NCBI GenBank assembly: GCA_002728565.1
Contig: PBUX01000064.1
Span: 29,529-93,528, forward strand
DNA: 64,000 bases
Direction of reading: 5' to 3'
From: Methanobacteriota archaeon
Lineage (GTDB): Archaea; Thermoplasmatota; Poseidoniia; Poseidoniales; Thalassarchaeaceae
Shown one piece after another: positions 2,505 through 44,079 of the stretch. Position numbers and translations under genes: made by a program. A model generated the notes under the pieces. That model worked only from the letters and a program-made list of their open reading frames with translations. It made no database searches and was not told where the DNA came from. Numbering within the stretch: the first letter of the stretch is position 1; every line of letters starts with the position of its first letter.

Positions 2505-4649
<2,145 letters not shown>

Positions 4650-4709
4650 AGTCAATTAGCACGCCACGGTTCATAGAGCTCGAGAGATATTGATAACAAG
4701 CGATTGCTG

Positions 4710-5984
4710 CTAATTCTCAGTCTTGGTTCGTACCGGTTGGCCTGCGACGTATACCTGATCAATCAACTGTGTATATGTGATGTCCCGGGTAGGGTCTTCA
4801 TCCAACACGATGAAGTCTGCCCACTTTCCTGGCTCGAGGGTTCCAATATCGTCTTCTAGGCCAAGGCAGCTAGCAGCCACGCTTGTGGCCGCTAACAAGG
4901 CTTGTGTCGGGGTCAGTCCACCTCCGACCATCAGTGCCAACTCCATATGCTCGAAGTAGCCGGGGAATCGGCCTGCAGGACCCGCGTCAGTTCCGAATGT
5001 TACTAGGGCGCCAGCATCTTGGAGGATTACCATGTTCTCCATTGCCTGAACGAGCGCGACTCTGTAGGCCGCACCGGAGGCACTCGCCAGGGTACGTTCC
5101 ATATAAGCAGGTTCACTCAGTCTCTCGATTTCATCCTCATTCGCATACTCTGTGAAAAACTCGTCGTCAAAAAATCCTGGTCTTGTGCCGTAGATATATG
5201 TGCTCACTTCACGAGTAAGAGTTGGGACATAGCAGATGCCACTTTCGAGAAGACTATCTATAAACTCTTCATCTACGTCCGTGTCCCTTACGGAGTGTGC
5301 GATCATCCCAGTTCCCATATCGATCAAGCGCTTGGCATCTTCAAGGTAGAAAAGATGTGTGGCGACTTGGATCCCTCTTTCGTTGCCGACGTCCATCACG
5401 GCCTGGACCGCATCCCACGGCATTTTACGTGACGAGCCAAGATTGTCATCTACCCTGAGCTTGAGCCAATCAACACCTGCGTCCGCATTAGCGATCGCTT
5501 GATTGCGAGCTGCCTCTGGGGTATTACCGGAGATTACTGCTCCTGCAGATAGCAGCCGAGCTCGCGGATCCAGGGGGCTTGAAGACTTCCGCGCTTCTAT
5601 CACGGCCAAGCCGTCGCCTAGACTATTCACTGTCGTGACTCCGTACTTTGCAAAGAGTTCGAGGTCACCACGGATACGGTCTTGCTCATCGACAATATCT
5701 TCGGCAGCCCATCGACCACTTACATGACCATGGGTGTTGATGAGCCCGGGAATCAAGACCTTGCCCTCAAGGAACACGATCTCTGTTCCAGTTGGGATTT
5801 CGGCTGACCGGGAGACCGCCGTAATGCGACCATCCTCTACAACCATTGTTGCGTTGCGGATGATCGAAGCACCAGTGCCATCCCATACGGAAGCGCCGAC
5901 GTAGGCTGTCGTTTGGGCTGCAAGGTTAGAGCCCGCCGCGAGGAGGACGGCGGTGAGAGTCGAAAGCGAGCGTAGTCTAATCAT
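4710..5984 (-). CDS. Secreted amidohydrolase family protein
   Basis: Signal peptide, followed by the amidohydrolase metal-binding motif 'LIPGLINTHGH'. Confidence 0.8.
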   Translation of the reverse strand: MIRLRSLSTLTAVLLAAGSNLAAQTTAYVGASVWDGTGASIIRNATMVVEDGRITAVSRSAEIPTGTEIVFLEGKVLIPGLINTHGHVSGRWAAEDIVDEQDRIRGDLELFAKYGVTTVNSLGDGLAVIEARKSSSPLDPRARLLSAGAVISGNTPEAARNQAIANADAGVDWLKLRVDDNLGSSRKMPWDAVQAVMDVGNERGIQVATHLFYLEDAKRLIDMGTGMIAHSVRDTDVDEEFIDSLLESGICYVPTLTREVSTYIYGTRPGFFDDEFFTEYANEDEIERLSEPAYMERTLASASGAAYRVALVQAMENMVILQDAGALVTFGTDAGPAGRFPGYFEHMELALMVGGGLTPTQALLAATSVAASCLGLEDDIGTLEPGKWADFIVLDEDPTRDITYTQLIDQVYVAGQPVRTKTEN

Positions 5985-6206
5985 AATCCGACCTTACTTC
6001 GAATCTGCAGTTGGTGGCAAGGGGCTCTGTCTGATGGATGACGAACGAAAGGCACCTCACAGAGACCTTAAATTGTTATTAGACTGGCTCCCTAGGGGAG
6101 ACGAGTTCATCTTATTGGTAGTCATTGATAGTGAGCGCGTCCTAAGTCAGAGGTAATTTGCCGTGCGGATTTCAGGGGGCTGTAGGGAGAAGAGCGTGGC
6201 CGAAAG

Positions 6207-8648
6207 GTGGAAACGATGAAGACATTTAGTGTGCTATCAGCGATGCTCGGGGTCATACTCGTTTCTCTAGGAGACCAGTATCCGGAGACTACACGGGCTG
6301 ATCTCCTTGCCTCCGTAATCGAACAAGGTGCAGCCTCAAGTAATGATGTGATCCAGCAGTATTGCGTGCGTTGTCACAATGACAGTGCATTGCGGGGGAA
6401 TATGACTCTGGAGCAGTTCGACTTGGCTAACGCTGAGGACAATCCAGAGCTGACTGAGAAAATGATCAGTAAGGTCCGAGCCGGTATGATGCCGCCACCG
6501 GGTGCTAGGCGTCCGGCGGGAGACACACTCAGAGTTCTAGCTGAAGAACTTGAGTTACATATGGATGGATTCGCTGCACGCAGTCCCAACCCAGGCGGCC
6601 GAACCTTCCAGCGTCTTAATCGGTCGGAATATGAGAGAGCGGTCTTCGATTTGCTTGGCCTTGAAGTTGATGCTGGAGCATATCTGCCGCTGGACACCAA
6701 GAGCGAAAATTTCGACAACATTGCTGATGTACAGCTTCTGTCGCCAACATTACTTGATGCCTACCTGAATGCGGCAGCAGATATCAGCCGCCTCGCGTTG
6801 GGGGATCCCAATGCAAGACCAGCTGAGCACACCTACAACGTCTCCGGCTACCGCTCTCAGACAGAACGGGTCCCTGGTGCACCATTTGGTACGCGAGGAG
6901 GTGTCTCCGTCGTGCATACGTTCCCAGCAGACGGAGAGTACATTTTCCGGATCGCTTTTGAACATACGACGACCGGTGACGGTTTCGTTGGTCAGATCAT
7001 AAGATTCGAGCAGGTCGAAGTCTCTGTGAATGGCTCACGAGTTGCGCTATTGGATCTGGACCAATGGATGCGCATATCCGATCCCGAGGGGATTTCAATG
7101 CGAACTGACCCAATCTTTGTGCGTGCTGGTCCGCAACGTGTGACTGCTGCTTTCATCCGAAAAACAGAAGGACCAGTCGAGGACCTCATGTCCCCACATG
7201 ACTGGTCTCTTGCTGATCGTCATACTGGTATCAGTGGTTATGGTTTGACTCTTCTGCCACATGTTCGCGATCTGGTCATTTCAGGTCCGAACAAGGTTAC
7301 TGGCGTCTCTGAATCGCCGATTAGGCAGAATATTTTTACCTGTCGTCCCACTTTGGCTGATGAGGCGCATCCTTGCGCTGAGGAGATTATCTCCGGACTA
7401 GCCAGACAAGCATACCGCAGACCGCTCAATGAGCGGGATCTTGAGTTCTTAATGTCGTTTTACGAGGAAGGAGCTAGTGGTGGCTTCGAGATAGGGATTC
7501 GTACCGCACTCCAAGCAATTCTAGCAAGTCCTCACTTCGTATTCCGTTTCGAAGAAGCTCCCCCGAACGTGCAGCCGGGGGAAAGCTATCGAATTAGTGA
7601 TGTCGATTTGGCATCACGACTTTCTTTCTTCCTATGGGGAACTGCTCCTGACCCTGAGCTACTAGGAGTTGCTGAGCGAGGGGAACTCTCTGATCCGGAA
7701 GAGCTTGAGAATCAAGTGCTTAGGATGTTGAGTGACAGGCGTGCTGAGTCTCTTGGCCCGAGGTTCGCGGGGCAGTGGCTTCGCTTACAGGACCTTGATA
7801 AGGTCCATCCTGATCAATTCTGGTTCCCTGATTTCGATCAACAGCTAGCAGAAGCAATGCGGCAAGAGACAGAGCTGTTGTTCAACTATTTGGTAAGTGA
7901 GAACAGGAGTATTTTAGACCTCTATTCAGCGGACTACACATTCGTGAACGAGCGTTTGGCTCGGCACTATAGTATTCCAGGCGTTGTCGGTGATCATTTC
8001 CGTCGAATCGTATATCCAGATGATCAGAGGAGAGGAGTGTTTGGGCATGGCAGTGTCCTCACACTTACCTCCCACGCGAATCGCACATCACCTGTGCTTC
8101 GAGGGAAGTGGGTGATGGAGGTTCTTCTTGGATCGCCGCCACCACCACCTCCACCAGGCATTCCGGACCTTGAAGAAACTGAAAGCTCAGAAGCGGGAAG
8201 GATACTGACTACTCGAGAACGAATGGAAGCTCATCGAACAAACCCGACATGTAACTCGTGTCACAGGTTTATTGACCCAATTGGTCTCGCACTCGATAAC
8301 TTTGATGTCACGGGCCGGTGGCGGATACGAGAGAATGGTGCACCCCTCGACACGAGAGGTGAACTCTATGATGGGACACCTGTTTCGAATCCGACTGAGC
8401 TGAAGGATGCCCTTTTGAAGCGGCCAATACCTCTGATTCGAACATTTACTGAGAATTTGATGGCGTACGCCCTGGGAAGAAGGGTAGAATACTATGATCA
8501 GCCGACTGTGCGATCGATAGCCCGGGCTGCTGCTACAGAGGGATACAAAATATCCGCTTTCATACTTGGGGTGGTTGAAAGCGATGCGTTTCAGGTTCAG
8601 CAAGTGGCAAACGTAGTCGACAATCAGTTGCAGGACCTGCCAAATTAG
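6207..8648 (+). CDS. DUF1592/DUF1595/DUF1587/DUF1588/DUF1585 'Planctomycete cytochrome c' (PSCyt/PSD) protein, copy A; two CxxCH motifs
   Basis: 813 aa with a Sec signal peptide. CVRCH near the N-terminus and CNSCH near the C-terminus. Poly-Pro tract (PPPPPPP). About 65-70% identical to the paralog at 12483-14942. Confidence 0.85.
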   Translation: METMKTFSVLSAMLGVILVSLGDQYPETTRADLLASVIEQGAASSNDVIQQYCVRCHNDSALRGNMTLEQFDLANAEDNPELTEKMISKVRAGMMPPPGARRPAGDTLRVLAEELELHMDGFAARSPNPGGRTFQRLNRSEYERAVFDLLGLEVDAGAYLPLDTKSENFDNIADVQLLSPTLLDAYLNAAADISRLALGDPNARPAEHTYNVSGYRSQTERVPGAPFGTRGGVSVVHTFPADGEYIFRIAFEHTTTGDGFVGQIIRFEQVEVSVNGSRVALLDLDQWMRISDPEGISMRTDPIFVRAGPQRVTAAFIRKTEGPVEDLMSPHDWSLADRHTGISGYGLTLLPHVRDLVISGPNKVTGVSESPIRQNIFTCRPTLADEAHPCAEEIISGLARQAYRRPLNERDLEFLMSFYEEGASGGFEIGIRTALQAILASPHFVFRFEEAPPNVQPGESYRISDVDLASRLSFFLWGTAPDPELLGVAERGELSDPEELENQVLRMLSDRRAESLGPRFAGQWLRLQDLDKVHPDQFWFPDFDQQLAEAMRQETELLFNYLVSENRSILDLYSADYTFVNERLARHYSIPGVVGDHFRRIVYPDDQRRGVFGHGSVLTLTSHANRTSPVLRGKWVMEVLLGSPPPPPPPGIPDLEETESSEAGRILTTRERMEAHRTNPTCNSCHRFIDPIGLALDNFDVTGRWRIRENGAPLDTRGELYDGTPVSNPTELKDALLKRPIPLIRTFTENLMAYALGRRVEYYDQPTVRSIARAAATEGYKISAFILGVVESDAFQVQQVANVVDNQLQDLPN

Positions 8649-8667
8649 GTATGAGGAGAAGAGCTAT

Positions 8668-10080
8668 ATGAATTTTGTCACGGGAAAGCAGATACCGCGC
8701 CGAACATTTGTGAAAGGTGTTGGTGCTTCAATGGCCCTACCTTTTCTGGACGCGATGATCCCAGCGGGGAGAGTGTGGTCGAAGGCATTGCCAGAGGCAG
8801 ATCCAACCCGTGTGATTGCAATTGAGATGGTCCACGGAGCCGCCGGATGTAACGAGTGGGGTGCCACACAGAACTTATGGTCTCCTGCTCAGGTTGGGCG
8901 TGACTTTGACCTAACACCAAGCGCGCTTAGCCCGCTCGAGTCTTTCCGCGACTATTTGACGATTATCAGTAATACTGATGTTAAGATGGCTGAAGCATTC
9001 GAGCCGCCTGAGATAGGGGGTGACCACTTCCGATCAAGTGCAGTCTATCTCACGCAATCTCACCCCAAGCAAACCCGAGGCTCAGATCTCTATGCTGGAA
9101 CATCTTTTGATCAACTGTGTGCGCAGCGATTCGGTCAAGAGACATCGATTCCGTCAATGCAGCTGTGTATTGAACCCGTAGATCAATCTGGTGGGTGTGC
9201 TTATGGATACGCTTGTGCCTATACGGATTCGATAAGCTGGGCATCGCCGAGTGAACCACTCCCGATGATCCGGGATCCTCGCGTGGCGTTTGAAATGCTA
9301 TTCGGGGCAGGTGGGACTCCGGAAGAACGTGCAGCTCGCAGAAAGACAAATAAGAGTATACTTGATTGGATTACAGAAGAAATTGCTTTTCTTAGGAAAG
9401 ACCTAGGACCCACAGATCACGCTAGGCTGGACCGCTATCTGGACAACGTCCGCGAATTGGAACGACGTATCCAAGCAATTGAAGCCCAGAACAGAAGTGG
9501 AGAATCTCGCGAGCTACCTGAAGCTCCTGCGGGTGTGCCTGACTCTTTCGAAGAGCACGTCAAGCTGATGTTTGACCTTCAGGCTCTTGCTTTTGCATCA
9601 GATGTCACCCGTGTTTTTTCCTTCAAGACCGGTCGAGACGCCTCAGGTCGTGTCTACCCAGAGAGCGGCACTGATCGTCCGTTCCATGGAGCTTCGCACC
9701 ACGGAGGCCGTGAGGAGGCAATTCTTGAGTTCTTCAAGATCAATAAGTACCACACGAGCCTACTTCCATATCTCTTGAACAACCTTGCGAGCATTGAAGA
9801 AGCCGACGGTAATCTGCTGGACAACACGATGATTATTTATGGATCACCGATGGCGGACGGAAATCTTCACAACCATCGGCGCTGTCCACTGATTGTTCTC
9901 GGAGGTGCAGGAGGACACAACCCTGGAAATCTCCACTTAAAGGCTCCAGACGGGACTCCAATGGCCAACGTGATGTTGAGCTTACTCCATGATCTTGGGG
10001 TTGATGACTTGGAGAACTTCGGGGACAGCAGTGGCGAGTTCTCATTATCGATGCCAGTGACTTTTTCTACTAACAGCTGA
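8668..10080 (+). CDS. DUF1552 (HxxSHH) protein, Tat-exported, copy A
   Basis: Twin-arginine motif RRTFVKG and 'FHGASHHGGREEA'. This is the canonical partner of DUF1592 proteins. Paralog at 14970-16388. Confidence 0.85.
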   Translation: MNFVTGKQIPRRTFVKGVGASMALPFLDAMIPAGRVWSKALPEADPTRVIAIEMVHGAAGCNEWGATQNLWSPAQVGRDFDLTPSALSPLESFRDYLTIISNTDVKMAEAFEPPEIGGDHFRSSAVYLTQSHPKQTRGSDLYAGTSFDQLCAQRFGQETSIPSMQLCIEPVDQSGGCAYGYACAYTDSISWASPSEPLPMIRDPRVAFEMLFGAGGTPEERAARRKTNKSILDWITEEIAFLRKDLGPTDHARLDRYLDNVRELERRIQAIEAQNRSGESRELPEAPAGVPDSFEEHVKLMFDLQALAFASDVTRVFSFKTGRDASGRVYPESGTDRPFHGASHHGGREEAILEFFKINKYHTSLLPYLLNNLASIEEADGNLLDNTMIIYGSPMADGNLHNHRRCPLIVLGGAGGHNPGNLHLKAPDGTPMANVMLSLLHDLGVDDLENFGDSSGEFSLSMPVTFSTNS

Positions 10081-10090
10081 GTAGAGAGCA

Positions 10091-11881
10091 TTGATAGGCC
10101 GTGAGGTGAGTCTTAGGGTTTTGGGCGTATTATGCTTCAGCCTGCTAATTCTTGCAGGTAAGCCCTTAGATTCACCGGTTGCCGATGCGGCAATGAATGG
10201 GGATCTAGACGAGGTTCGCCTGCTCTTGAGTCGTGGTGAAGATGTAAACGCTGCCCACGCAGATGGTATGACCGCACTGCATTGGGCTGCAGAAAACGCG
10301 CATACAGAAATGAGTTCGTTGCTTGTTTCAGCTGGTGCAAACCTTGAGGCGGTAACGCGGATAGGCGGTTACACGCCTCTCCATTTGGCGACGAGGAAAG
10401 GTTCTAGAGGAGTCGCCTTGCACCTCCTTGAGGCAGGTGCTGATCCACGAGCTGAAACTGAGACTGGGAACGTCACCCCGCTCCACTTCGCTGCAGCCGC
10501 TGGAGACGTGGGGTTAACGTCTTCTGTAATAGCGCATGGGGTGGATGTAGACGTACGTGAATCGACTTGGGGCCAAACTCCTTTAATTTTTGCGTCTTCA
10601 GCTGGCCATCTGGATGTCGTGCGTGTGTTGCTCTCGAATGGAGCTGATGCTTCACTCACCACGAAGGTTGTCGACATTCCTGCCCTAGATGAGGTAGACC
10701 GAACAGCGCGCAGAGTTCGTAACGAAATGCTGGAGGCCTTCAAGTCTGCCGCGATGGGAGGGCCAGGTTGGCGACCAGAGCCTAGCCAGGTGCGCGCAGC
10801 AGTTCAGGCAGCACAGCAGGTCCAGCGCTCCCTGACAAGCGTATCGGATGCACCAGAGCGGGAAGAGCAACCTGGTGCTCAGTTGGAAGTCCCATTGGGT
10901 TACACGGAGCTGGTAGGTAGGCAGGGCGGGCTTACACCGCTACTCCATGCAGTACGCGAAGGTCACGTCGATTTAGCACTTGCTCTTGTGGATTTCGGGG
11001 CGGATATCAATCAGGTAAGTGAAGGAGACCGTACTAGTCCAATCCTGATGGCAACAATAAACGGACACTTTGATTTAGCACTGCTGCTTCTTGATCGCGG
11101 CGCGGACCCGACGCTTGCTAGTGACGCTGGTGCAACACCACTCTTTTCGTCGCTGAACACACACTGGGCGCCCAAATCCCGGTATCCTCAACAGCACGCG
11201 TATCGTCAGCAAGATGCGACTTACCTAGATGTGATGAAGAGGTTCTTAGAGGCTGGTGTAGACCCGAACGTCAGGCTCAGGAAGCACATCTGGTACATGT
11301 CTTACACTTTCGACCTACTCCGAGTAAACACGATTGGTGCAACTCCTTTCTGGCGTGCAGCTTACGCTACGGATGTTGATGCGATGAAACTTCTTGTGGA
11401 GTACGGGGCGGATTACGGAGTTCCAACACTGAAACCACCTGGACGCGGACGAGGTGGTGCTAGTTCGAGCGAAGATCCTTCGGGGCTAGCAGCTATTCCT
11501 GATGGTGGCCCAGGAGTATTCCCGATCCACGCTGCAACTGGCGTTGGGTATGGAGAGGGATATGCAGGCAATTCTCATCGGCATGTCCCAGACGGCTGGC
11601 TACCTGCGGTTAGATACTTGGTCGAGGAACTAGGAGCAGATGTAAATGCTAGAGACCATAATGGATACAGCCCAGTTCATCATGCAGCAGCTCGCGGTGA
11701 CAACGAACTTATCCATTACCTAGTTCAGCAAGGTGCTGATGTGACGTTTATTAGCCGTCGAGGGCAGACAACAGTTGATATGGCGAACGGCCCACAGCAA
11801 CGGATCAGTCCATTTCCAGAAACGATCTCGTTGCTGGAAAGCCTGGGTGCGAAGAATAACCACAATTGTTTGTCTTGCTGA
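10091..11881 (+). CDS. Secreted ankyrin-repeat protein, copy A (C-terminal ...LESLGAKNNHNCLSC)
   Basis: Signal peptide. Multiple ANK repeats (…GMTALHWAAENAH…, …YTPLHLATRKG…, …NGYSPVHHAAARGD…). Paralog at 16391-18175. Confidence 0.8.
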   Translation: MIGREVSLRVLGVLCFSLLILAGKPLDSPVADAAMNGDLDEVRLLLSRGEDVNAAHADGMTALHWAAENAHTEMSSLLVSAGANLEAVTRIGGYTPLHLATRKGSRGVALHLLEAGADPRAETETGNVTPLHFAAAAGDVGLTSSVIAHGVDVDVRESTWGQTPLIFASSAGHLDVVRVLLSNGADASLTTKVVDIPALDEVDRTARRVRNEMLEAFKSAAMGGPGWRPEPSQVRAAVQAAQQVQRSLTSVSDAPEREEQPGAQLEVPLGYTELVGRQGGLTPLLHAVREGHVDLALALVDFGADINQVSEGDRTSPILMATINGHFDLALLLLDRGADPTLASDAGATPLFSSLNTHWAPKSRYPQQHAYRQQDATYLDVMKRFLEAGVDPNVRLRKHIWYMSYTFDLLRVNTIGATPFWRAAYATDVDAMKLLVEYGADYGVPTLKPPGRGRGGASSSEDPSGLAAIPDGGPGVFPIHAATGVGYGEGYAGNSHRHVPDGWLPAVRYLVEELGADVNARDHNGYSPVHHAAARGDNELIHYLVQQGADVTFISRRGQTTVDMANGPQQRISPFPETISLLESLGAKNNHNCLSC

Positions 11882-11897
11882 TCAACTAGTTAGTCTA

Positions 11898-12290
11898 CTA
11901 GCTCGAATCTCCGCCGCTAGACAGTTCTTCTAAGATACGCTCAAAAATTAAGCGCTGTTCTTCATCGATACTGATCACAAGCGTGATTTCGTCATATTCG
12001 AGCTGGCTCATCTCGTGTTCAGTGAGGATTTCTTGAATTCTTTCCTGAAAACGGGCTCGTATACGTTCACGCTCTTGAAGTTCGTGCGTGCGGCCCAGTT
12101 CCGCGTGAAAATCGTCCCGCTGCTCGCTGATTGCTATATGAGCTTCAACGAATACGGTCATGCGCTCCGTCGTTACTTGAGGTAGTTCCTGGGTTTGTGC
12201 TACCAATGGCAAGGGCTTCACCAGCAAGAGCGTTGTCATCGAGACAATGACAGCAGTGACATTAAGAGCTTTCCAGACTTCAGTTTTCAC
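11898..12290 (-). CDS. Hypothetical small secreted protein (helical, acidic)
   Basis: 130 aa ORF with an N-terminal signal-like hydrophobic segment. It lies between the two cassettes on the opposite strand. Confidence 0.4.
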   Translation of the reverse strand: MKTEVWKALNVTAVIVSMTTLLLVKPLPLVAQTQELPQVTTERMTVFVEAHIAISEQRDDFHAELGRTHELQERERIRARFQERIQEILTEHEMSQLEYDEITLVISIDEEQRLIFERILEELSSGGDSS

Positions 12291-12482
12291 TCTATCTCCT
12301 CCGAGTTCACTCGCAGGTTGGGTACCTAAGGATGATACTGCCGACCCCCTTTCTTGCCAAAAATCTGGTAACGTACTGGTTCGCTATTTGCAGTAGTTAT
12401 TGTGGCTGATGAGGGCTCTCCTACCTATAATACATTTGGAAAATCCCACGCTAACAAGCAAGACCCCTCTCAGAGGACATGT

Positions 12483-14942
12483 ATGAAGACCTTAGCCGGC
12501 GTCTCTGCGGTTTTGGGTTTTACCCTAATGCTCTTCGGTGGCGAAGCCTATGTGGCCCATTCGCCCCAAGAGTCATCACCCGAGTTTGTGCACCTGAGCT
12601 TGGGGGGACAAACAGCGTCAACGGATACGGATATCGATCATACTGAGGTTGTTGGACAGTACTGTGTACGGTGCCATAACGATCGCAGAATGACTGGCAA
12701 CATGTCACTTGAGCAGTTTGATGCTGCTAATCCGGAACGGAACGCAGAATTATCAGAAAAGATGATCCATAAGCTCCGGGCGGAGATGATGCCGCCACCG
12801 GGTGCGCGGCGTCCTGCCGGAGACACACTCTTATCGCTTGTTCTCGCCCTTGAATCCAGCATGGATGCTGCAGCGGTAGCGAACCCGAACCCTGGGGGAC
12901 GCAGTTTTCAGAGGCTGAACCAGGCTGAGTATGGGCGCTCTATTCTTGAATTGCTCGACTTGGAGATAGATGCTGGTGATTACCTCCCACTCGATACTAA
13001 GAGTGCGAATTTCGACAATATCGCTGATGCTCAGATGCTTTCACCGATGTTGCTTGATACGTACTTCCGAGCTGCAGCTGAGATTAGCCGACTAGCTGTC
13101 GGAGATCCAAATGTACTTCCCTCCTCGAAGACTTACACAAATGGCGGGTACGTTTCCCAATGGGATCGAGTAGAGGGTGCACCGTTCGGGACGCGTGGTG
13201 GAATCTCTGCCGTGCACACTTTCCCGGCAGACGGTGACTACGTGTTCAAGATGGCCTTTGAACATACCACGACCGGGGGATTTTTCGGCGGCACTTCTAG
13301 GGACGAACAGATCGAGATCTCGATTGATGGTGAGCGCGTTGCGCTCTATTGGGTTGACCGCTTCATGAACGTCTCAGATCCGAACGGCGCAAATATGCAA
13401 AGTGAGCCGATCTTTGTCCGCGCGGGCCCACGCAGGGTGAGCGCAGCTTTCTTGAGACAAGCTGAGGGGCCCAGAGAGGATGTGGTTTCACCTCATGAGT
13501 GGTCGCTGAGTGATAGGCAGATTGGGGTGAGCGGTTATGGAGTCACAGCACTTGCTCATCTGAAAGACCTAGCTATCACAGGTCCCTACGAAGCTACTGG
13601 TGTTTCAGAGACTCCGAGTCGGAGCCGAGTATTCAGTTGTCGGCCGCTTACTCTGGAGGAAGCACCCGCGTGTGCGGAGGAAATTATATCTCGACTGGGT
13701 CCGCAGGCTTTTCGCCGGTCACTAACACAGGACGACCTTGATGGGTTGATGTCTTTCTACGAACTAGGATTTGCTGACGGAGGGTTCGAGCTTGGAGTGC
13801 GGACAGCGATAGAAGCCATACTGGCTAGTCCCGACTTCGTGTTCAGGCTTGAAGAAGCACCCAGTGGGGTGAAGGCAGGGGAAAGCTACGCAGTAAGCGA
13901 CACTGATTTGGCATCTCGACTTTCATTTTTCCTTTGGGGCGCTCCGCCAGATGCGGAGTTGTTGGTCGCGGCCGAAAAGGGCGAATTGTCTGACGAGAGT
14001 GGGCTAACTGCCCAGGTCAGACGTATGCTCCAAGATTCTCGGGCAGAAGCTCTAGGGACACGGTTCGCGAGTCAGTGGCTCCGTTTGGAGGACTTAGACA
14101 AAGTCCACCCCGACCGACTGTTCTTCCCAGATTTTTACCAACAGCTTGCCGATGCGATGCTCAGGGAGACAGAACTGTTCTTCAATAGTTTGGTTCGTGA
14201 AGACCGAAGCGCGCTTGAGTTGTATTCTGCAGACTACACGTACTTGAACGAGGCTTTGGCAAAACACTACGGTATTCCGGGAATTACGGGTACCCATTTT
14301 CGTAAGGTCCAATACCCGGACGCTACCCGCCGCGGAATCCTAGGGCACGGAAGTATTCTCACACTTACCTCACACGCAAATCGGACTTCTCCGGTGCTAC
14401 GAGGCAAATGGGTGTTAGAGGTATTGTTAGGAGCTCCGCCGCCACCACCACCACCAGGTATCCCTGATCTAGACGAGACAGAAGCTTTTGAAGCTGGACG
14501 GCTATTAACTACCCGTGAGCGTATGGAACTGCATCGCTCAAGCCCATCTTGCAACTCGTGCCATCGTTTCATGGATCCCATAGGCCTCGCACTCGATAAT
14601 TACGATGTGACAGGCAGATGGCGGATTCGAGAAAATGGTATGCCACTTGATACCAAGGGCGAATTTTATGATGGGACTATGATTGAGACTCCTTCAGCAC
14701 TTCAGGAAGTTCTCGTAAAGCGGCCGATCCCACTTGTCAGAACTTTCACAGAAAATCTCATGGCATATGCTCTTGGCCGCAGAGTAGAGTATTATGATCA
14801 ACCGACTATCAGGTCTATTACTGCGCAGGCTGAAGAAGACGATTATCGTATGTCATCGTTCATACTTGGAGTTGTGCTCAGTGATGCCTTTAGGATGCAG
14901 CAGGTGAACGTGGTTGCAGATGATGGAAGCGGGATCAACTAG
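12483..14942 (+). CDS. DUF1592 'Planctomycete cytochrome c' protein, copy B; two CxxCH motifs
   Basis: Start taken at the internal ATG (MKTLAGVSAVLGFTLMLFGG signal peptide). The ORF extends to 12402 upstream. CVRCH and CNSCH motifs and a P7 tract are conserved with copy A. Confidence 0.85.
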   Translation: MKTLAGVSAVLGFTLMLFGGEAYVAHSPQESSPEFVHLSLGGQTASTDTDIDHTEVVGQYCVRCHNDRRMTGNMSLEQFDAANPERNAELSEKMIHKLRAEMMPPPGARRPAGDTLLSLVLALESSMDAAAVANPNPGGRSFQRLNQAEYGRSILELLDLEIDAGDYLPLDTKSANFDNIADAQMLSPMLLDTYFRAAAEISRLAVGDPNVLPSSKTYTNGGYVSQWDRVEGAPFGTRGGISAVHTFPADGDYVFKMAFEHTTTGGFFGGTSRDEQIEISIDGERVALYWVDRFMNVSDPNGANMQSEPIFVRAGPRRVSAAFLRQAEGPREDVVSPHEWSLSDRQIGVSGYGVTALAHLKDLAITGPYEATGVSETPSRSRVFSCRPLTLEEAPACAEEIISRLGPQAFRRSLTQDDLDGLMSFYELGFADGGFELGVRTAIEAILASPDFVFRLEEAPSGVKAGESYAVSDTDLASRLSFFLWGAPPDAELLVAAEKGELSDESGLTAQVRRMLQDSRAEALGTRFASQWLRLEDLDKVHPDRLFFPDFYQQLADAMLRETELFFNSLVREDRSALELYSADYTYLNEALAKHYGIPGITGTHFRKVQYPDATRRGILGHGSILTLTSHANRTSPVLRGKWVLEVLLGAPPPPPPPGIPDLDETEAFEAGRLLTTRERMELHRSSPSCNSCHRFMDPIGLALDNYDVTGRWRIRENGMPLDTKGEFYDGTMIETPSALQEVLVKRPIPLVRTFTENLMAYALGRRVEYYDQPTIRSITAQAEEDDYRMSSFILGVVLSDAFRMQQVNVVADDGSGIN

Positions 14943-14969
14943 AGATAGCTACTAGGAGAAGCTCGGATT

Positions 14970-16388
14970 ATGGAATTCATCACCGGTAAACACATGCCCC
15001 GTCGTTCGTTCGTTCGAGGGATGGGTGCAACGGTGGCTCTGCCATTTCTAGAAGCGATGATCCCAGCTGGACGTATTTGGTCTAGCGCTAACGAAGATGC
15101 TTTACCTACTCGGCTAGTCGCGATTGAGATGGTCCATGGGGCCGCCGGATGTAACGAATGGGGTGCAACGCAAAACCTCTGGTCTCCGGAGGAAGTCGGC
15201 CGTGACTTTGATCTCACGCCAACCTCGCTTAGCTCACTCGAGCCATTCAGAGATTATCTCACGATCATTAGCAACACCGATGTCAGGATGGCAGAAGCTT
15301 TCCAGCCTTATGAAATTGGTGGGGACCATTTTCGCTCAAGTGCTGTTTTCCTGACTCAGTCTCACCCGAAGCAAACGGAAGGTTCAGACGTATACGTTGG
15401 AACTTCTCTTGATCAACTCTACGCTCAGCGTTTTGGGCAGGACACACCGATCCCTTCCATGCAACTTTGCATTGAGAATATCAATCAATCGGGTGGGTGT
15501 GCGTACGGGTATACGTGCGTCTACACGGACTCAATCAGTTGGGCATCGCCTACCGAGCCATTGCCGGTTATTCGCGATCCAAGGGTCGCATTCGACCAAT
15601 TGTTTGGTGCTGGAGGAACTGTTGAGGAGCGTGCACTTCGTCGCAGGACAAATAAGAGTATACTCGATTGGATCACTGGTCGTGTGGCCCAACTGCGAAG
15701 GGAGCTTGGCCCCAACGATATTCAGAGACTCGACAGGTACCTAGACAACGTTCGGGAAATCGAACGTCGTATCCAAAGAATTGAAGCTCAGAATATGAGT
15801 GGTGAGTCTCGAGATTTACCGGAGGCACCGGCCGGGGTACCGGACTCGTTTGAAGAGCACACCCGGCTGATGTTTGACTTGCAAGCACTCGCCTTCTCGT
15901 CAGATGTGACTAGGGTATTCTCGCTGAAGATGGGCCGTGACTCATCCGCACGGGTTTTCGCAGAGAGTGGCACAGATCGTCCGTTCCATCCCGCATCACA
16001 CCATGGCGGACGAGAGGAAGCAATTCTTGATTTTGCTAAGATCAACCGATACCACGTAAGCATGCTCCCATACTTCCTTGAGAAGCTTCAGAGCATACAA
16101 GAAGGTGACACCCATCTTCTAGACAAGACGATGATCATTTATGGATCACCGATGGCAGACGGGAATCTCCATAACCATCGTCGTGCTCCCCTCTTTGTTG
16201 CGGGTGGGGCGAATGGAAGGTTGGAAGGGGGGCTCCATCTTAAGACGCCGGACGGAACCCCGATGGCGAATGCTATGCTAAGTCTTGCTCATACGTTGGG
16301 CATGGATGATATGGATGATTTCGGTGACAGTACTGGAGAGCTGTCCTTATCAATGCCTGCCAGCACCCTTACTAGCGCAGGGTCATAA
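14970..16388 (+). CDS. DUF1552 (HxxSHH) protein, Tat-exported, copy B
   Basis: RRSFVRG Tat motif and 'FHPASHHGGREEA'. Confidence 0.85.
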   Translation: MEFITGKHMPRRSFVRGMGATVALPFLEAMIPAGRIWSSANEDALPTRLVAIEMVHGAAGCNEWGATQNLWSPEEVGRDFDLTPTSLSSLEPFRDYLTIISNTDVRMAEAFQPYEIGGDHFRSSAVFLTQSHPKQTEGSDVYVGTSLDQLYAQRFGQDTPIPSMQLCIENINQSGGCAYGYTCVYTDSISWASPTEPLPVIRDPRVAFDQLFGAGGTVEERALRRRTNKSILDWITGRVAQLRRELGPNDIQRLDRYLDNVREIERRIQRIEAQNMSGESRDLPEAPAGVPDSFEEHTRLMFDLQALAFSSDVTRVFSLKMGRDSSARVFAESGTDRPFHPASHHGGREEAILDFAKINRYHVSMLPYFLEKLQSIQEGDTHLLDKTMIIYGSPMADGNLHNHRRAPLFVAGGANGRLEGGLHLKTPDGTPMANAMLSLAHTLGMDDMDDFGDSTGELSLSMPASTLTSAGS

Positions 16389-16390
16389 GG

Positions 16391-18175
16391 ATGAGTACGC
16401 ACTTCTTAAGATCCTTAAGTGTATTGTGTCTTAGTGCACTGTTATCGGGCGCAGTACCTCCTGAGTCGCCGGTGGCGGATGCAGCCATGCGAGCCGACTT
16501 GGATAAGGTGCGGATACTTCTTAAGGGTGGAGCGGATGTAAACGTTGCTCAAGGCGACGGAATGACTGCACTTCACTGGTCAGCTGAGAATCGCAGTGTC
16601 GAGATGGCTGCGATGCTTATCTATGCTGGTGCGAATGTGGAGGCTGTTACCCGGATCGGTGGCTACACACCACTGCATCTGGCCTCACGGTCTGGTAGTG
16701 CTGCGATCGTTCAGGAGCTGCTCGAAGCTGGTGCAAACCCAACGGTCGCGAGTAGCGCAGGTGGAGCCACACCCCTTCACTTCGCAGCATCAGCATCAAG
16801 TAGGGGATCAGTGATCTCGTTACTTGACCATGGTGCCGAGATTGATGCTCGTGAGAGTGCTTGGGAACAGACACCGCTCATGTTTGCTGCCTCACTTGGT
16901 CGTACTGAGATCGTGGAGTTATTGCTCAGCCGAGGAGCGGACGTATCCGTTACCACTTCTGCTGTCTACTTGCCGGCGCTTCAGGATGAGGACCGGGCTG
17001 CTCGACAGCGCAGGGACAAAGTGCTCGATGGATTCCGTGCTCAGAATGTCTCGGGATCTGAGTCTTGGAGACCAAGCCCGACAGAGGTACAGGCAGCAAT
17101 GGAGTCTTCTAGGATAGACCCAGAAGAATCAGCTAATCCTGAAGAAGAGGGAGAAGACGCCTACAACGAACAGGTCGGTGTCCCTGGTGGGAACTCTTAC
17201 GCGGATCTCGTAGGTACGATGGGTGGGACCACTGCTTTGATTCATGCTGTTCGAGAAGGACATCTCGAAACAGTGGGTGTGCTTTTGGATCATGGTGCGG
17301 ACATCAATCAACCTAGTGCAGGTGACCAGACGACACCGTTACTGAGTGCAATAATTAACGGCTACTTTGATCTTGCTCTTGAGTTGCTTAAGCATGGCGC
17401 TGACCCGAGACTCGCGAGTACGGCAGGTACGACACCACTTTTCTCCGTAATTAATACGAGATGGGCACCAAAGGCTCGTTATCCACAGCAGGAAGCCCAC
17501 AAGCAGCAACAGGCAACACACTTAGAAGTGATGGAGGCCCTGCTCCGATCTGGAGCTAACCCGAACGCGCGGTTGACTAAGCACCTGTGGTTTATGGAAT
17601 ACACATTCAGCCACTTGGGCATCGACACCTCCGGAGCTACTCCGTTCTGGCGTGCGACCCATGCACTTGATGTACCGGCGATGAAGCTTCTAGTTGAATA
17701 TGGTGCCGATCCTGGTATTCCCACGACCAAGGGGCGGGATCGTCGCTCACGCGGGGGTGGAGGAGAAGATCCCTCTGGACTGCCCCCTGTCCCATTTGGT
17801 GGGCCAGCTGTCCACCCGATTCATGTAGCTGCAGGTCATGGATACGGCACTGGTTACGCGGGTTACTCACATAGGCATGCGCCAGATGCATGGCTTACGA
17901 CTGTGAAGTATCTCGTTGAAGAGCACGGAGCTGACGTCAATGCGCGAGATCACAACGGATATTCCCCAGTCCATAACGCTGCATCTCGCGGTGATATTGA
18001 GATGATTCGCTACCTTGTGGACAAGGGAGCAGACGTTATGGTGGTGAGCCGCCGGGGGCAGACAACCGTCGATATGGCAAACGGCCCACAGCAACGGATC
18101 CAGCCGTTCCCGGAAGCGATGTCATTGCTTGAAAGCCTGGGTGCAAAAAACAATCACAATTGTGTGAGTTGCTGA
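16391..18175 (+). CDS. Secreted ankyrin-repeat protein, copy B (C-terminal ...LESLGAKNNHNCVSC)
   Basis: Signal peptide. ANK repeats. Collinear with copy A. Confidence 0.8.
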   Translation: MSTHFLRSLSVLCLSALLSGAVPPESPVADAAMRADLDKVRILLKGGADVNVAQGDGMTALHWSAENRSVEMAAMLIYAGANVEAVTRIGGYTPLHLASRSGSAAIVQELLEAGANPTVASSAGGATPLHFAASASSRGSVISLLDHGAEIDARESAWEQTPLMFAASLGRTEIVELLLSRGADVSVTTSAVYLPALQDEDRAARQRRDKVLDGFRAQNVSGSESWRPSPTEVQAAMESSRIDPEESANPEEEGEDAYNEQVGVPGGNSYADLVGTMGGTTALIHAVREGHLETVGVLLDHGADINQPSAGDQTTPLLSAIINGYFDLALELLKHGADPRLASTAGTTPLFSVINTRWAPKARYPQQEAHKQQQATHLEVMEALLRSGANPNARLTKHLWFMEYTFSHLGIDTSGATPFWRATHALDVPAMKLLVEYGADPGIPTTKGRDRRSRGGGGEDPSGLPPVPFGGPAVHPIHVAAGHGYGTGYAGYSHRHAPDAWLTTVKYLVEEHGADVNARDHNGYSPVHNAASRGDIEMIRYLVDKGADVMVVSRRGQTTVDMANGPQQRIQPFPEAMSLLESLGAKNNHNCVSC

Positions 18176-18258
18176 TAGCTCCGTTCACCACATAGTGCCA
18201 AGTATCAGTTAAGTGGGTGTCTATCTCCTACGAAGACTTTACCGAGTTCATTCCAATC

Positions 18259-19584
18259 TTATCTACCAACTTCTCGGATATCGCTTCGTGCTCGTGGAGA
18301 TCGAGTGTAGGCTGACACCAAGCTTTCATGGCCATTTGGCCCGATAGCCATAACTCCGAATACGTAGTCGTCTATCGAGATGTCCTCGAGCACGTAAGCA
18401 GTGACATCGCCAACATCAATCCCAAATTGCCACTCCGGGGTCCAGGCTTCGCGCCAGACCACTCTGTAGGAGGACGCCCCTTGGGAGGCTTCCCAACTCA
18501 TCGAGGCCGCGTACCCTGATTCGCCTCGTCCGAGACGGGGGTTGCCGCCATCCATCACATTGGGGGCCGGCGGAGCCAGGGCTATTGTCGCCACCCCGGC
18601 AGCGTTCACACGAGCATTTTTCGCAAGGTATTCGAAATCAACACCCCCAAGTGTGTCTTCTGGTTCATGTTGACGACTATAGTTCTCTCGGGATTCAGTA
18701 AACCGAACTCCTGCAAACCCTCGGCGGTTGAATGCCGTGTGGTCACCACCACGGCCGAAGCGATCTTCACGCGCGATCAGGCGCACCTCATGTCCCGGCA
18801 TGTAGACTGCTGCATGTCTGCGGATGAAGCGTGCTAGTTGTCGGGATGGGGAGTCCATAGGGTCCTCTGAGAAGACCCGCACGGTCCTGCCATCAGTAAT
18901 CCCATTCCCACCTTCGGTATTCCCCACGATATCATTATTGAAGACGGCGTCGATCACCCACCCTTCTCGTTCTGCTTTTGCGGAATGAAGGCTTGCTCCT
19001 ACCAGGCCTTCTTCCTCTGCGACGAAACCTACGAATACCAGGGTTGCATCAAATTGCAGTCCGCTTTGAGCCATTACACGGGCTACCTCCATTGTGAGAA
19101 CGGTTCCACTACCGTCATCATTGGCCCCTGGAGCGGGATTGTCCCATCGGGTCCAGTCGAATTCCCCACTATCGATTCGCCGCGCAACTGTATCGTAATG
19201 ACCACTCACATAAACTCGGCGATTGCTTCTACCAGGCAGTATGGCGACCACATTGCAAAGTTCAACTTCTTGAGCGATCCGTCCCTGGGGCTCAACCTGA
19301 TAACAATCAAAATCAACTTGGAGACGGTCGCTGAAGCTCTGCATGGTTCGCAGGATATACTCTCGTGCTGGACTGATACCCCAGTCGGGGCGGTCCGAGA
19401 GAGAAAGCGAATGTCGGGTTTGGAAGTCCGTAAGTACTTCCAGGTACTCATGAAGCCGTTCCGGCGAGATGTTTCGGACCACTTCGACGATTTGAGGGTC
19501 AATCACAGGCCCTTGTGCCGACGATGGTGGTGTTGTGAGCAGGGCAAAGAAAAGCATGATCACAATTGGGATCTGAAGCTTCAT
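18259..19584 (-). CDS. Secreted M28 family peptidase with C-terminal FN3-like domain
   Basis: Signal peptide and M28 zinc-aminopeptidase motifs (…GANDDGSG…, …FVGFVAEEEGLVGA…). Confidence 0.8.
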   Translation of the reverse strand: MKLQIPIVIMLFFALLTTPPSSAQGPVIDPQIVEVVRNISPERLHEYLEVLTDFQTRHSLSLSDRPDWGISPAREYILRTMQSFSDRLQVDFDCYQVEPQGRIAQEVELCNVVAILPGRSNRRVYVSGHYDTVARRIDSGEFDWTRWDNPAPGANDDGSGTVLTMEVARVMAQSGLQFDATLVFVGFVAEEEGLVGASLHSAKAEREGWVIDAVFNNDIVGNTEGGNGITDGRTVRVFSEDPMDSPSRQLARFIRRHAAVYMPGHEVRLIAREDRFGRGGDHTAFNRRGFAGVRFTESRENYSRQHEPEDTLGGVDFEYLAKNARVNAAGVATIALAPPAPNVMDGGNPRLGRGESGYAASMSWEASQGASSYRVVWREAWTPEWQFGIDVGDVTAYVLEDISIDDYVFGVMAIGPNGHESLVSAYTRSPRARSDIREVGR

Positions 19585-32693: not shown

Positions 32694-32768
32694 TTCTAGA
32701 TCATCCTCTTCGAGTCGGTCAGTATACTGGTTGTTTCGTTATTGATAGATTCTTCGCATTCCGAGTGA

Positions 32769-39464: not shown

Positions 39465-39545
39465 CGGGATGATGCTCCTGATGGTCTTTGCCGTGCGACC
39501 TTAAGGTCAACAAGATTTCTCACATAACCTAGATACTATCTCTTA

Positions 39546-39770
39546 TTACTTACAAAAAACATAGCCGTAGTAGGTGTTGTGGTTTTGTGGAATCTTGTAC
39601 CCAATAAGACTCCGTTTCCTTATGCCCTGTCTGTAAAAACGATCTATTTCGCTCCGATAAACTTTTGGTGGAAAAATGTTTAAAGTTCTCAAGTGGTAGA
39701 AATTTCTGTTTTTTGACCGTGGAAAAACGAGGGGTTTTCCACACTTGTTCACATTAGCCGTGGAAAACTC
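39546..39770. other. Putative oriC: AT-rich dnaA-dnaN intergenic region with at least five DnaA-box-like 9-mers
   Basis: TTTTCCACA (39735-39743), CGTGGAAAA (39718-39726 and 39759-39767), TGGTGGAAAAA (39666-39676), TTGTGGAAT (39585-39593), together with A/T tracts that could serve as DNA-unwinding elements. Confidence 0.5.
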
Positions 39771-41662: not shown

Positions 41663-41670
41663 GCTCTACG

Positions 41671-44053: not shown

Positions 44054-44079
44054 GCTGCGCACGCGGACTTTGTGCTGAG

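Follow-up and report, generated by a model that had tools for sequence, protein, structure and literature searches.

The window analysed here, a stretch of 64,000 nucleotides, contains two sets of three co-directional genes, each in the order PSCyt1/PSD (DUF1592), DUF1552 and ankyrin-repeat protein; we refer to these sets as triads A and B and to their ankyrin proteins as ANK_A and ANK_B (Table 1). Within the triads, gaps of 19–27 nt separate the first gene from the second and gaps of 2–10 nt the second from the third, and the placement of each ANK gene at the end of a DUF1592-DUF1552 operon, made in a preliminary description of this DNA, holds for both triads. The definition of a PSCyt/PSD-DUF1552 module, the conserved same-strand adjacency of a PSCyt1-PSD3-PSD5-PSD4-PSCyt3-PSD2 protein and a DUF1552 protein, applies here: the Pfam domains of the module score above their cutoffs with the exception of PSCyt1, which reaches 21.3–21.7 bits against 22 but has its CxxCH motif. 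A promoter and terminator scan of positions 5900–18400 returned fewer sites than shuffled sequence. The window's own genes flanking the triads are conserved in close relatives only.

Table 1. Genes and sequence features of the two triads, with positions counted from the first letter of the window.
Feature	Position	Strand	Remarks
Triad A gene 1, exported dihaem c-type cytochrome	6207..8648	+	PSCyt1-PSD3-PSD5-PSD4(DUF1592)-PSCyt3-PSD2; Pfam
Triad A gene 2, DUF1552 (HXXSHH), Tat signal PRRTFV	8668..10080	+	Pfam E=3e-83; RR motif
ANK_A	10091..11881	+	Triad A gene 3, ankyrin-repeat protein; probable true start GTG at 10106
ANK_A signal-peptide-like N-terminus MSLRVLGVLCFSLLILAG	10106..10159	+	Kyte-Doolittle maximum 2.93
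ANK_A C-terminal tail NNHNCLSC	11855..11878	+	Then TGA stop
Small exported DUF4168 protein	11898..12290	-	Between triads, convergent with ANK_A; Pfam E=1.6e-5, just above cutoff
Triad B gene 1, paralogous dihaem PSCyt1/PSD cytochrome	12402..14942	+	Probable start ATG at 12483
Triad B gene 2, DUF1552, Tat signal PRRSFV	14970..16388	+	Pfam, motif
ANK_B	16391..18175	+	Triad B gene 3, ankyrin-repeat paralogue of ANK_A
ANK_B signal-peptide-like N-terminus MSTHFLRSLSVLCLSALLSGA, then VPPESPVADAAM	16391..16453	+	Sequence features
ANK_B C-terminal tail NNHNCVSC	18149..18172	+	Then TGA stop

Translation of ANK_A from the TTG start at 10091 gives a protein of 596 aa, whilst ANK_B comprises 594 aa; the two had been described as paralogues of 595 aa each, of which the reading frames, coordinates, strand and paralogy (60% identity over the full length, 354/592) stand and the exact length does not. 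In the NCBI record of ANK_A (P0081, beginning MSLRVLG) the GTG at 10106 serves as the start, leaving 591 aa. Both proteins are clearly recognised by the Pfam models Ank (ANK_A: E=2e-56, 185 bits; ANK_B: E=4e-66, 216 bits; cutoff 21.1) and Ank_2 (185 and 195 bits, respectively; cutoff 27.3), and a PDB sequence search with ANK alone returned generic ankyrins and DARPins only. The AlphaFold model of ANK_B (m6d0af9ea884c) exhibits a single solenoid of 12–13 repeats (pLDDT 86, pTM 0.82), for which Foldseek gave TM scores of 0.83–0.84 to the 12-repeat structures 5y4f and 1n11 (ankyrin-B and ankyrin-R). In this model residues 581–590 are confidently placed and residues 591–594 with low confidence only (pLDDT ~53): the terminal Cys pair sits on an ordered C-terminal cap as a short hook of low confidence. 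Conservation is highest in the last 100 residues of the protein, and conserved His residues are found at H478, H494, H496 and H528. ANK_A and ANK_B are best explained as members of an uncharacterised family whose proteins are exported and fold into an ankyrin solenoid of some 12–13 repeats.

Membership of ANK in the triad, as claimed in the preliminary description, is maintained across the family: all 50 ANK copies with at least 4.3 kb of upstream DNA show the full order PSD-DUF1552-ANK, and where at least 1.6 kb is available upstream, DUF1552 directly precedes 61 of 65 copies and PSD directly precedes three. At loci with two triads, the upstream ANK is nearer to ANK_A and the downstream ANK nearer to ANK_B in 20 of 21 cases: the whole three-gene unit was duplicated anciently. 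The carriers are marine, soil and groundwater MAGs of Gemmatimonadota, Acidobacteriota and Woeseiaceae, and the three genes have been shown here to be inherited as a unit across phyla, which shows a shared function, not a mechanism. Since members of the family, in Gemmatimonadota and a small number of further phyla, are almost always encoded third in a cytochrome c/DUF1552 operon, ANK looks like a dedicated subunit and not like a host effector.

ANK_A and ANK_B share the common ending ...LESLGAKNNHNC(L/V)SC, with the translations running to the stop as ...LESLGAKNNHNCLSC and ...LESLGAKNNHNCVSC, respectively; the near-identity of the two tails that had been reported is thus seen in both. Across the last 12 codons there are five synonymous changes (including Ser TCT versus AGT) and one Leu/Val replacement. 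Recent gene conversion is excluded as the source of the matching tails by these five synonymous differences, and the codon pattern indicates purifying selection on the tail peptide. A tail confined to the two paralogues had been named beforehand as an outcome that would refute its relevance, and this is clearly not what is seen: the CxxC ending was found in 98 of 99 orthologues from 78 genomic loci (Gemmatimonadota, Acidobacteriota and Woeseiaceae) and in 115 of 120 non-redundant orthologues (less than 80% identical), with both Cys residues conserved to 97%. Giant ankyrin proteins crowded the results of a representative search made with the C-terminal half, and the true orthologues were picked by hand. 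Within the set of 99, the CxxC motif lies at the very end in 73 and is followed by a single residue in 25, this residue always being E, Q or D (25/25), whilst distant ANK homologues carry 2–6 extra residues. The consensus reads G-x-x-N-N-x-x-C-x-[S/A/G/T]-C, then 0 or 1 residue; in ANK_B numbering, conservation over the 120 orthologues is 0.97 for N587, 0.97 for C591, 0.86 for S593 and 0.97 for C594, position 589 is H, N or D (His conserved to 65%) and the second variable position of the CxxC motif is always small (S in 86%, otherwise A, G or T).

The Cys pair is therewith among the most conserved features of the protein, and the mature chain has no cysteines other than these two. In the divergent homologues P0172 and P0267 both are lost together, as would be expected if they act as a pair, and the tail is retained in the PSD-ANK variants that have no adjacent DUF1552 (L051, L072 and L073). 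A thioredoxin-fold oxidoreductase of the DsbA/TlpA/ResA kind was rejected, there being no thioredoxin or redoxin match in Pfam and the CxxC motif forming the last four residues after the ankyrin C-cap. A c-type haem site (CxxCH) was likewise rejected, as ANK ends at the second Cys or one E/Q/D later.

The N-terminus of ANK resembles a Sec signal peptide: a basic n-region and a hydrophobic h-region of variable sequence are found in 65 of 70 homologues, many with W or L at position -3. Amongst the partners, the PSD cytochrome of triad A has a hydrophobic segment at its N-terminus and two CxxCH motifs (at C53 and C682), and DUF1552 combines a Tat signal with three invariant Cys (an odd number) and about ten invariant His. 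PSD also has a Cys pair at C413/C424, and the cysteines of DUF1552 include C167, C177 and C183. Given the Sec-like ANK N-terminus, the two cytochrome CxxCH motifs and the Tat signal of DUF1552, all three triad proteins are probably periplasmic, which lends indirect support to the earlier assignment of ANK as an exported protein with a signal peptide; a membrane-tethered periplasmic ANK is equally possible. We rejected a lipoprotein, as the h-region Cys is not conserved and a lipobox is lacking. PDB profile searches with DUF1552 and PSD gave nothing significant, and no second Pfam family was found in DUF1552 when searching to E=10. The structure model of DUF1552 was poor (pLDDT 52.6, from a shallow alignment of ~80% identity) and all Foldseek matches obtained with it were non-significant (E ≥0.3); the top matches all belong to the alkaline-phosphatase superfamily (sulfatase, ENPP/autotaxin, LtaS), a hint that comes from this model.

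We consider it likely that ANK is a dedicated exported subunit of the triad with a functional Cys pair. It would form the third component of a periplasmic module together with the dihaem PSCyt1/PSD/DUF1592 cytochrome and the Tat-exported DUF1552 protein, with the solenoid acting as an adaptor that binds one fixed partner: those ankyrin positions that normally vary as target contacts are as conserved as the framework (0.71 versus 0.73), which suggests a single fixed partner. This partner would most likely be the cytochrome, since in rare cases PSD and ANK stay together although no DUF1552 adjoins them. A more specific mechanism, which we put forward tentatively and rate somewhat short of an even chance, would see the Cys pair as a short reactive hook on the C-terminal cap that cycles between dithiol and disulfide, or that makes a mixed disulfide or covalent adduct at the haem site or the cysteines of the partner. 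Such thiol chemistry could operate either in catalysis, where ANK would act as a SoxY- or DsrC-like protein co-substrate, or in the maturation of the cytochrome CxxCH sites. Speaking against such a thiol arm, the dipeptide between the Cys residues is V/L/Q followed by S/A/G, whereas redox-active CxxC motifs typically have Pro, Gly, His or Tyr there; with the stretch ahead of the Cys pair ordered in the model, about four residues only would be mobile and the reach would be short; and the pair may be a permanent disulfide in the oxidising periplasm. Mutual information between the tail type (+0/+1 residue) and columns of the adjacent DUF1552 and PSD proteins showed no clean coupling, its maximum of 0.51 of 0.82 bits falling on variable positions and probably reflecting phylogenetic signal.

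The proposals of the preliminary description for the tail and the protein, a metal site, a disulfide, an interaction motif or an adaptor role, are narrowed by this evidence to readings of differing probability. The main rival to the thiol arm is a metal-chelating tail, a reading that we regard as possible, if rather doubtful: the tail thiolates would chelate a thiophilic ion, for instance Cu(I) or Zn(II), with help from the His/Asn/Asp close by and from the terminal carboxylate, and would share this ion with DUF1552 or the cytochrome or pass it on to them, making ANK a periplasmic metallochaperone or a metal-bridged subunit. Metal loops of the MerP/CopZ type have the form MxCxxC, and precedents for Cys-based sites include periplasmic MerP, the C-terminal Cys pair of MerA and the CXC motif of the CCS copper chaperone. 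By its residues the ANK tail looks more like such metal-binding C-x-[small]-C loops: the C-x-[S/A/G/T]-C pattern of MerP/CopZ-type sites is present, with its always small second variable position, although the HMA fold is absent according to Pfam. Chelation is also favoured by the H/N/D at position 589 and by the restriction to E, Q or D of any residue after the last Cys; against it, His is conserved to 65% only. Whilst the invariant His and Cys residues of the Tat-exported DUF1552 protein would suit a metal-receiving partner, Tat substrates usually gain their cofactors in the cytoplasm; periplasmic metal chaperones, furthermore, rely mostly on Met and His, Cys pairs being readily oxidised there. 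The joint loss of both Cys residues in P0172 and P0267 fits chelation too; on the other side, the triads have no linked genes for metal transport or resistance.

It is unlikely, in our estimation, that ANK does no more than scaffold the haem protein or chaperone its assembly, as AnkB does for KatB and Cj1386 for KatA, with the CxxC motif as a structural disulfide that caps the C-terminus or guards against exoproteases without any chemistry of its own. Where an exported protein has an even number of Cys, a disulfide is indeed the usual meaning, and the segment preceding the pair is ordered in the model; yet a four-residue terminal loop adds little stability to a solenoid of 570 residues and is nonetheless conserved like the core (0.97), at a distance from the C-terminus that is held to 0–1 residue in 98/99 orthologues. 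AnkB is short, has few repeats and partners a haem b catalase, and to our knowledge no C-terminal Cys pair has been described for it, nor a Cys tail reported for Cj1386. Periplasmic or haem-linked ankyrin helpers as such are known: AnkB, from the katB-ankB operon of Pseudomonas aeruginosa and also from Myxococcus xanthus, is needed for full activity of the haem enzyme (Howell et al. 2000, cited in PMC12754779), and Cj1386 of Campylobacter jejuni is an ankyrin-containing protein that binds haem and traffics it to the catalase KatA (PMC11442138). Going by the description of AnkB in PMC12754779, the likeness to ANK lies in an ankyrin protein with an N-terminal export or anchor signal, in ANK a putative one, whose gene is directly downstream of that for a haem enzyme in the same operon; the ANK operon, too, begins with a haem protein gene, encoding two CxxCH motifs, with linkage in 50/50 complete loci. 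ANK differs, comparing by description, in its ~12–13 repeats, its dihaem c cytochrome and DUF1552 partners and its invariant CxxC end. Cj1386 shares with ANK the functional tie of an ankyrin protein to a haem enzyme, but is described as cytoplasmic, binds haem via Tyr57 and not via Cys, and is found without the triad context.

Returning to the proposed thiol mechanism, comparison is invited with two proteins whose C-terminal cysteines are known to react. The reactive Cys of SoxY lies a few residues from the C-terminus, as a single Cys in a GGCGG motif and on a fold unrelated to that of ANK; in ANK a conserved Cys is likewise found within a few residues of the C-terminus (98/99 orthologues). 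The SoxYZ carrier is acted on by the c-type cytochrome SoxAX and the dinuclear-metal hydrolase SoxB (PMC5336275), and this partner set of a periplasmic C-terminal-Cys protein is formally parallel to the dihaem PSD protein and the possibly hydrolase-like DUF1552; the triads differ in that no sulfur-metabolism genes, such as those for sulfur oxidation, occur near them and in that the covalent adduct in ANK is a proposal. In DsrC, two conserved Cys lie in the C-terminal peptide (...CRIAGLPKPTGCV), the last of them next to the C-terminus, and serve a haem enzyme as co-substrate by forming a trisulfide or disulfide (PMC10861901). The C-terminal Cys thus act as a pair, as suggested for ANK, although DsrC is cytoplasmic, spaces its Cys by 10 residues versus 2, has an unrelated fold and partners a sirohaem enzyme. 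Homology of ANK to SoxY or DsrC/TusE was not detected in Pfam, PDB or fold searches, which gave ankyrin matches only. These unrelated folds count against the thiol arm, as does the lack of sulfur-metabolism genes nearby. A further step, which we hold to be quite improbable, would make the triad an unrecognised periplasmic carrier-protein redox system, in which a substrate or intermediate is bound to the ANK Cys pair covalently or as a disulfide or persulfide, PSCyt/PSD oxidises it and DUF1552 releases it; if true, such a system would parallel SoxYZ/SoxAX/SoxB in function with folds unrelated to theirs, and would offer a first biochemical way into the PSCyt/DUF1552/DUF1501 modules with which planctomycete and verrucomicrobial genomes are filled.

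The weakest reading, a eukaryote-like effector whose terminal CxxC is a CaaX-type prenylation box used after delivery into a host cell, as in Legionella AnkB with its ankyrin repeats and its Cys near the C-terminus in a CaaX box, is hardly credible, and the host-interaction framing of the preliminary description is not supported: ankyrin repeats with a Cys four residues from the end are superficially CaaX-like and partial matches to NCBIfam Dot/Icm Ank effector models exist, but the best of these reaches 114 bits against a cutoff of 600 with the others similarly far below, as generic repeats would, the CaaX register is broken by the extra residue in 25/99 orthologues and by the 2–6 residues of distant homologues, and, unlike Legionella AnkB and other Ank effectors, which are host-delivered T4SS substrates, ANK has a Sec-like N-terminus, an operon with Tat- and Sec-exported partners, and environmental MAGs as its carriers.

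Pairs of PSCyt/PSD cytochromes with DUF1552 or DUF1501 are abundant and conserved; for those of Planctomycetes and Verrucomicrobia, a role in electron transport has been suggested and the function is stated to be unknown in the literature searched (PMC3542564, PMC5615132). These resemble the triads in that a PSCyt/PSD cytochrome adjoins a Tat-signal protein, whereas the units in these papers comprise two genes, or four-gene clusters with other partners, and an ankyrin third gene with a Cys tail is not mentioned there. The ANK subfamily adds a third obligatory partner with a chemically reactive and mutable terminal Cys pair: as this pair is open to thiol trapping, cross-linking, metal analysis and Cys-to-Ser genetics, the chemistry of the module becomes directly testable. 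A caution also follows for metagenomic ankyrin genes, which are often taken as eukaryote-like host-interaction factors: here a widespread family appears instead to serve a bacterial redox module as an exported subunit. As to the wider neighbourhood, a DUF4168 gene adjoins the triads in 23 loci (tblastn) and is the only widely recurring neighbour beyond the triads themselves, whilst two further neighbours, SusC/SusD-like pairs at 14 loci and creatininase at 13, are confined to particular lineages.

The two ankyrin ORFs were recovered where the preliminary description had placed them, and each is indeed the third of three tightly spaced genes on the same strand (triads A and B), following a dihaem c-type cytochrome with PSCyt1/PSD/DUF1592 domains (PSD) and a DUF1552 gene. 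Translation gives 596 aa from a TTG start at 10091 for ANK_A and 594 aa from an ATG start at 16391 for ANK_B; the start of ANK_A is probably the GTG at 10106, because the NCBI-derived cluster representative P0081 begins with MSLRVLG. The paralogues are 60% identical end to end and are ankyrin-repeat proteins by all tests applied: Pfam ankyrin models match at E = 2e-56 (ANK_A) and 4e-66 (ANK_B), and both stay below the cutoff of every model in the NCBIfam search. Their C-termini read ...LESLGAKNNHNCLSC (ANK_A) and ...LESLGAKNNHNCVSC (ANK_B), and the last 12 codons differ by five synonymous changes (including Ser TCT vs AGT) and one Leu/Val replacement, so that the identical tail peptide is maintained by selection rather than by recent gene conversion. 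The gaps between genes measure 19-27 nt (genes 1-2) and 2-10 nt (genes 2-3). A promoter/terminator consensus scan around the triads returned fewer sites than shuffled sequence and therefore sets no operon boundaries.

Features of the window and variant modules of other genomes (locus coordinates)
Feature	Position	Strand	Remarks
Catalase-peroxidase, KatG-like	2526-4649		
Triad A gene 1, PSD	6207-8648		PSCyt1-PSD3-PSD5-PSD4(DUF1592)-PSCyt3-PSD2 (Pfam)
Triad A gene 2, DUF1552/HXXSHH	8668-10080		Pfam, E ~1e-83
Triad A gene 3, ANK_A	10091-11881		
Small exported DUF4168 protein	11898-12290	-	between the triads, convergent with ANK_A; Pfam match just above cutoff
Triad B gene 1, PSD	12402-14942		PSCyt1-PSD3-PSD5-PSD4(DUF1592)-PSCyt3-PSD2 (Pfam)
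Triad B gene 2, DUF1552/HXXSHH	14970-16388		Pfam, E ~1e-83
Triad B gene 3, ANK_B	16391-18175		
Redoxin/AhpC-TSA family protein	23959-24546	+	
CcdA/DsbD_TM protein	28983-29714	+	
dnaN	38358-39464	-	
dnaA	39754-41205	-	
PSD-ANK module, L051	4236-8821		
PSD-ANK module, L072	4347-8830		
PSD-ANK module, L073	about 4590-8833		

The ANK N-terminus consists of one or two basic residues and ~12-15 hydrophobic residues (Kyte-Doolittle 2.3-2.9 over 11 residues), followed by a conserved mature start ...P(E/D)SPVADAAM, an architecture kept despite sequence variation in 65 of 70 homologues; across the homologue N-termini the h-region cysteine is unconserved and there is no lipobox. Export via Sec is predicted from these features, and even with an uncleaved signal the protein would sit on the periplasmic face. 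The mature chains of ANK_A and ANK_B contain exactly two cysteines, both in the terminal CxxC. This tail, whose conservation beyond the two paralogues the preliminary description had made decisive, ends 98 of 99 ANK copies of the loci compared, either at the very end (73) or followed by one residue that is always E, Q or D (25); the sole exception looks like a read-through. Conservation in the non-redundant set is 1.00 for G584, 0.97 for N587, 0.88 for N588, 0.97 for C591, 0.86 for S593 (otherwise A, G or T) and 0.97 for C594. Among more remote representatives, 44-57% identical over the C-terminal half, NNxxCxxC is mostly retained, in some cases with 2-6 residues added; joint loss of the two cysteines occurs in two of them (…NNHKAVSK, …NNHRAVSR), and a few end in unrelated sequence. 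The 997 aa representative P0259 carries, in place of the Cys tail, an extension of ~330 residues whose last part is an AhpC/TSA-redoxin domain (E=8e-11) without the usual CxxC; either a fused gene or an artefact of assembly could explain this.

In an AlphaFold model of ANK_B from 63 homologues (pLDDT 86, pTM 0.82), an N-terminal set of five repeats leads into an excursion (~190-270), formed by a long helix and a disordered acidic linker, after which come 7-8 further repeats; with Foldseek the whole model aligns to 12-repeat ankyrin-B R13-24 and ankyrin-R D34 (target-normalised TM 0.83-0.84). Residues 581-590 (ESLGAKNNHN) are modelled with a confidence of ~90 and within 581-594 only the last four residues, the CxxC, fall to ~53; the Cys pair would therefore project from an ordered C-terminal cap as a short hook rather than a long tether. 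A second family-specific element is the highly conserved loop G-x-G-Y-G-x-G-Y-A-G-N-S-H-R-H (482-496), which reads G-H-G-Y-G-T-G-Y-A-G-Y-S-H-R-H in ANK_B, with G482, G486, A490, H494 and H496 nearly invariant family-wide; it is poorly modelled (pLDDT < 50 at 487-492) and may become ordered only upon partner or cofactor binding. Conservation over 120 non-redundant orthologues is highest in the C-terminal 100 residues (0.78-0.83). Target-contact positions of ankyrins are usually variable; here they are 0.71 conserved vs 0.73 for the framework, the pattern expected with a fixed binding partner.

Homologue searches with ANK returned thousands of matches: those from the window's own lineage are 95-100% identical, and among the matches listed those from outside it show full-length coverage at ~55-70% identity. 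A locus scan with one genome per species confirmed 131 loci, of which 78 were kept, mostly from Gemmatimonadota (Gemmatimonadales, Longimicrobiales), the remainder from Acidobacteriota (including Vicinamibacterales) and Woeseiaceae/other gammaproteobacterial MAGs; the MAGs derive from marine, soil and groundwater samples. Where 1.6 kb or more of upstream DNA is available (65 copies), ANK directly follows DUF1552 in 61 and PSD in three, with one (L059) ambiguous; where 4.3 kb or more is available (50 copies), the order is always PSD-DUF1552-ANK. In the three PSD-ANK loci (L051, L072, L073) the 7 kb upstream contain no DUF1552, and the CxxC tail is retained; in L051 an amidase gene separates an upstream ANK from the PSD gene. 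One PSD-DUF1552 pair without ANK adjoins a complete triad (L071). Tandem double triads are common; the upstream ANK resembles ANK_A more closely, and the downstream one ANK_B, in 20 of 21, which shows that the whole unit was duplicated long ago and has kept its order. DUF4168 homologues (the window's copy is helical) adjoin triads in 23 loci and so may represent a fourth component; no other broadly conserved neighbour emerged from the locus comparison. Downstream of the triads, 14 loci (L008, 12364-15543, and L009, 10390-11829, both minus strand, and 12 more) carry on the opposite strand a SusC-like TonB-dependent receptor gene, its product with a CarboxypepD_reg domain, and a SusD/RagB-like gene, and 13 loci carry a creatininase-family gene.

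Within the triad subfamily DUF1552 is unusually conserved, at ~80% identity across phyla compared with ~60-70% for PSD and ~55-60% for ANK. It has three invariant cysteines (C167, C177, C183; an odd number) and ~10 invariant histidines, and both window copies bear a twin-arginine motif, PRR(T/S)FV. Both PSD proteins have an N-terminal hydrophobic segment and two CxxCH haem c motifs, which with a C413/C424 pair are the conserved cysteines. Profile searches detected no solved-structure relatives of PSD or DUF1552, and neither these nor DUF4168 had an NCBIfam match. The DUF1552 model is poor (pLDDT 52.6) and gave no significant Foldseek match; the top non-significant ones are all alkaline-phosphatase-superfamily enzymes, which is no more than a hint. 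A literature search found no functional study of DUF1552, DUF1592 or PSCyt. Pairs of a PSCyt/PSD cytochrome gene and a DUF1501 or DUF1552-type gene have been described in Planctomycetes and Verrucomicrobia, with Tat signals noted, electron transport suggested and function stated as unknown; the passages on these pairs make no mention of an ankyrin partner (PMC3542564; PMC5615132).

Across three phyla, then, ANK, a dihaem cytochrome and a Tat-signal protein are co-inherited, and ANK is an exported-looking ankyrin solenoid with an almost invariant terminal Cys pair. We infer for ANK the role of a dedicated subunit or adaptor in this module, with a functional Cys pair presented at the solenoid's most conserved end. 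Tentatively, we favour thiol chemistry: the pair could alternate between its dithiol and disulfide states, or a mixed disulfide or adduct could arise at a partner's redox centre. In either case it would serve as a protein-borne co-substrate or help to reduce and hold the cytochrome CxxCH cysteines during maturation. Precedents are SoxY, whose periplasmic carrier cysteine is serviced by SoxAX, a cytochrome, and SoxB, a dimetal hydrolase (PMC5336275), and DsrC, whose two C-terminal cysteines form a trisulfide with a haem enzyme (PMC10861901). The main rival, that the tail chelates a metal and hands it on, appears rather unlikely; in its favour are the C-x-[small]-C pattern, the presence of H, N or D at position -2, the acidic or amide nature of any residue after the last Cys, and a His-rich DUF1552. 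It is improbable that the disulfide is purely structural and ANK a scaffold or chaperone of AnkB/Cj1386 type. In general logic ANK is closest to AnkB, a periplasmic helper and co-operonic accessory to a haem protein, but differs in size, partners and Cys-pair tail. A host-interaction effector reading, with the tail as a CaaX box, is essentially excluded, given that 25 of 99 tails end one residue past CxxC and NCBIfam cutoffs are not reached. It appears that the 'eukaryote-like' ankyrin genes of environmental genomes include a large class that belongs to a bacterial periplasmic redox module, and the Cys-pair family makes the PSCyt/DUF1552 systems, long unexplained, accessible to experiment.

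Periplasmic thiols and cytochrome c maturation usually receive their reducing power from redoxin/AhpC-TSA and CcdA/DsbD_TM proteins. A gene of each kind lies 6-11 kb downstream of triad B, with no linkage to triads seen outside close relatives. The catalase-peroxidase, amidohydrolase and peptidase neighbours are likewise conserved in close relatives only; genes for the catalase-peroxidase, an amidohydrolase and M28, M20 and two M14 peptidases surround the triads (regions 2526-5984, 18259-19584, 31101-35519, 51612-53903), which suggests a peptide-scavenging organism. On the plus strand, yidC, mnmE and mnmG come after dnaN/dnaA (region 38358-47451), together the typical gene set of a chromosomal replication-origin region. 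G+C is 0.49 at 38-40 kb and 0.58 at 40-42 kb, and it remains high up to the window end; this jump at ~40 kb could be natural or a chimeric join in the metagenome assembly.
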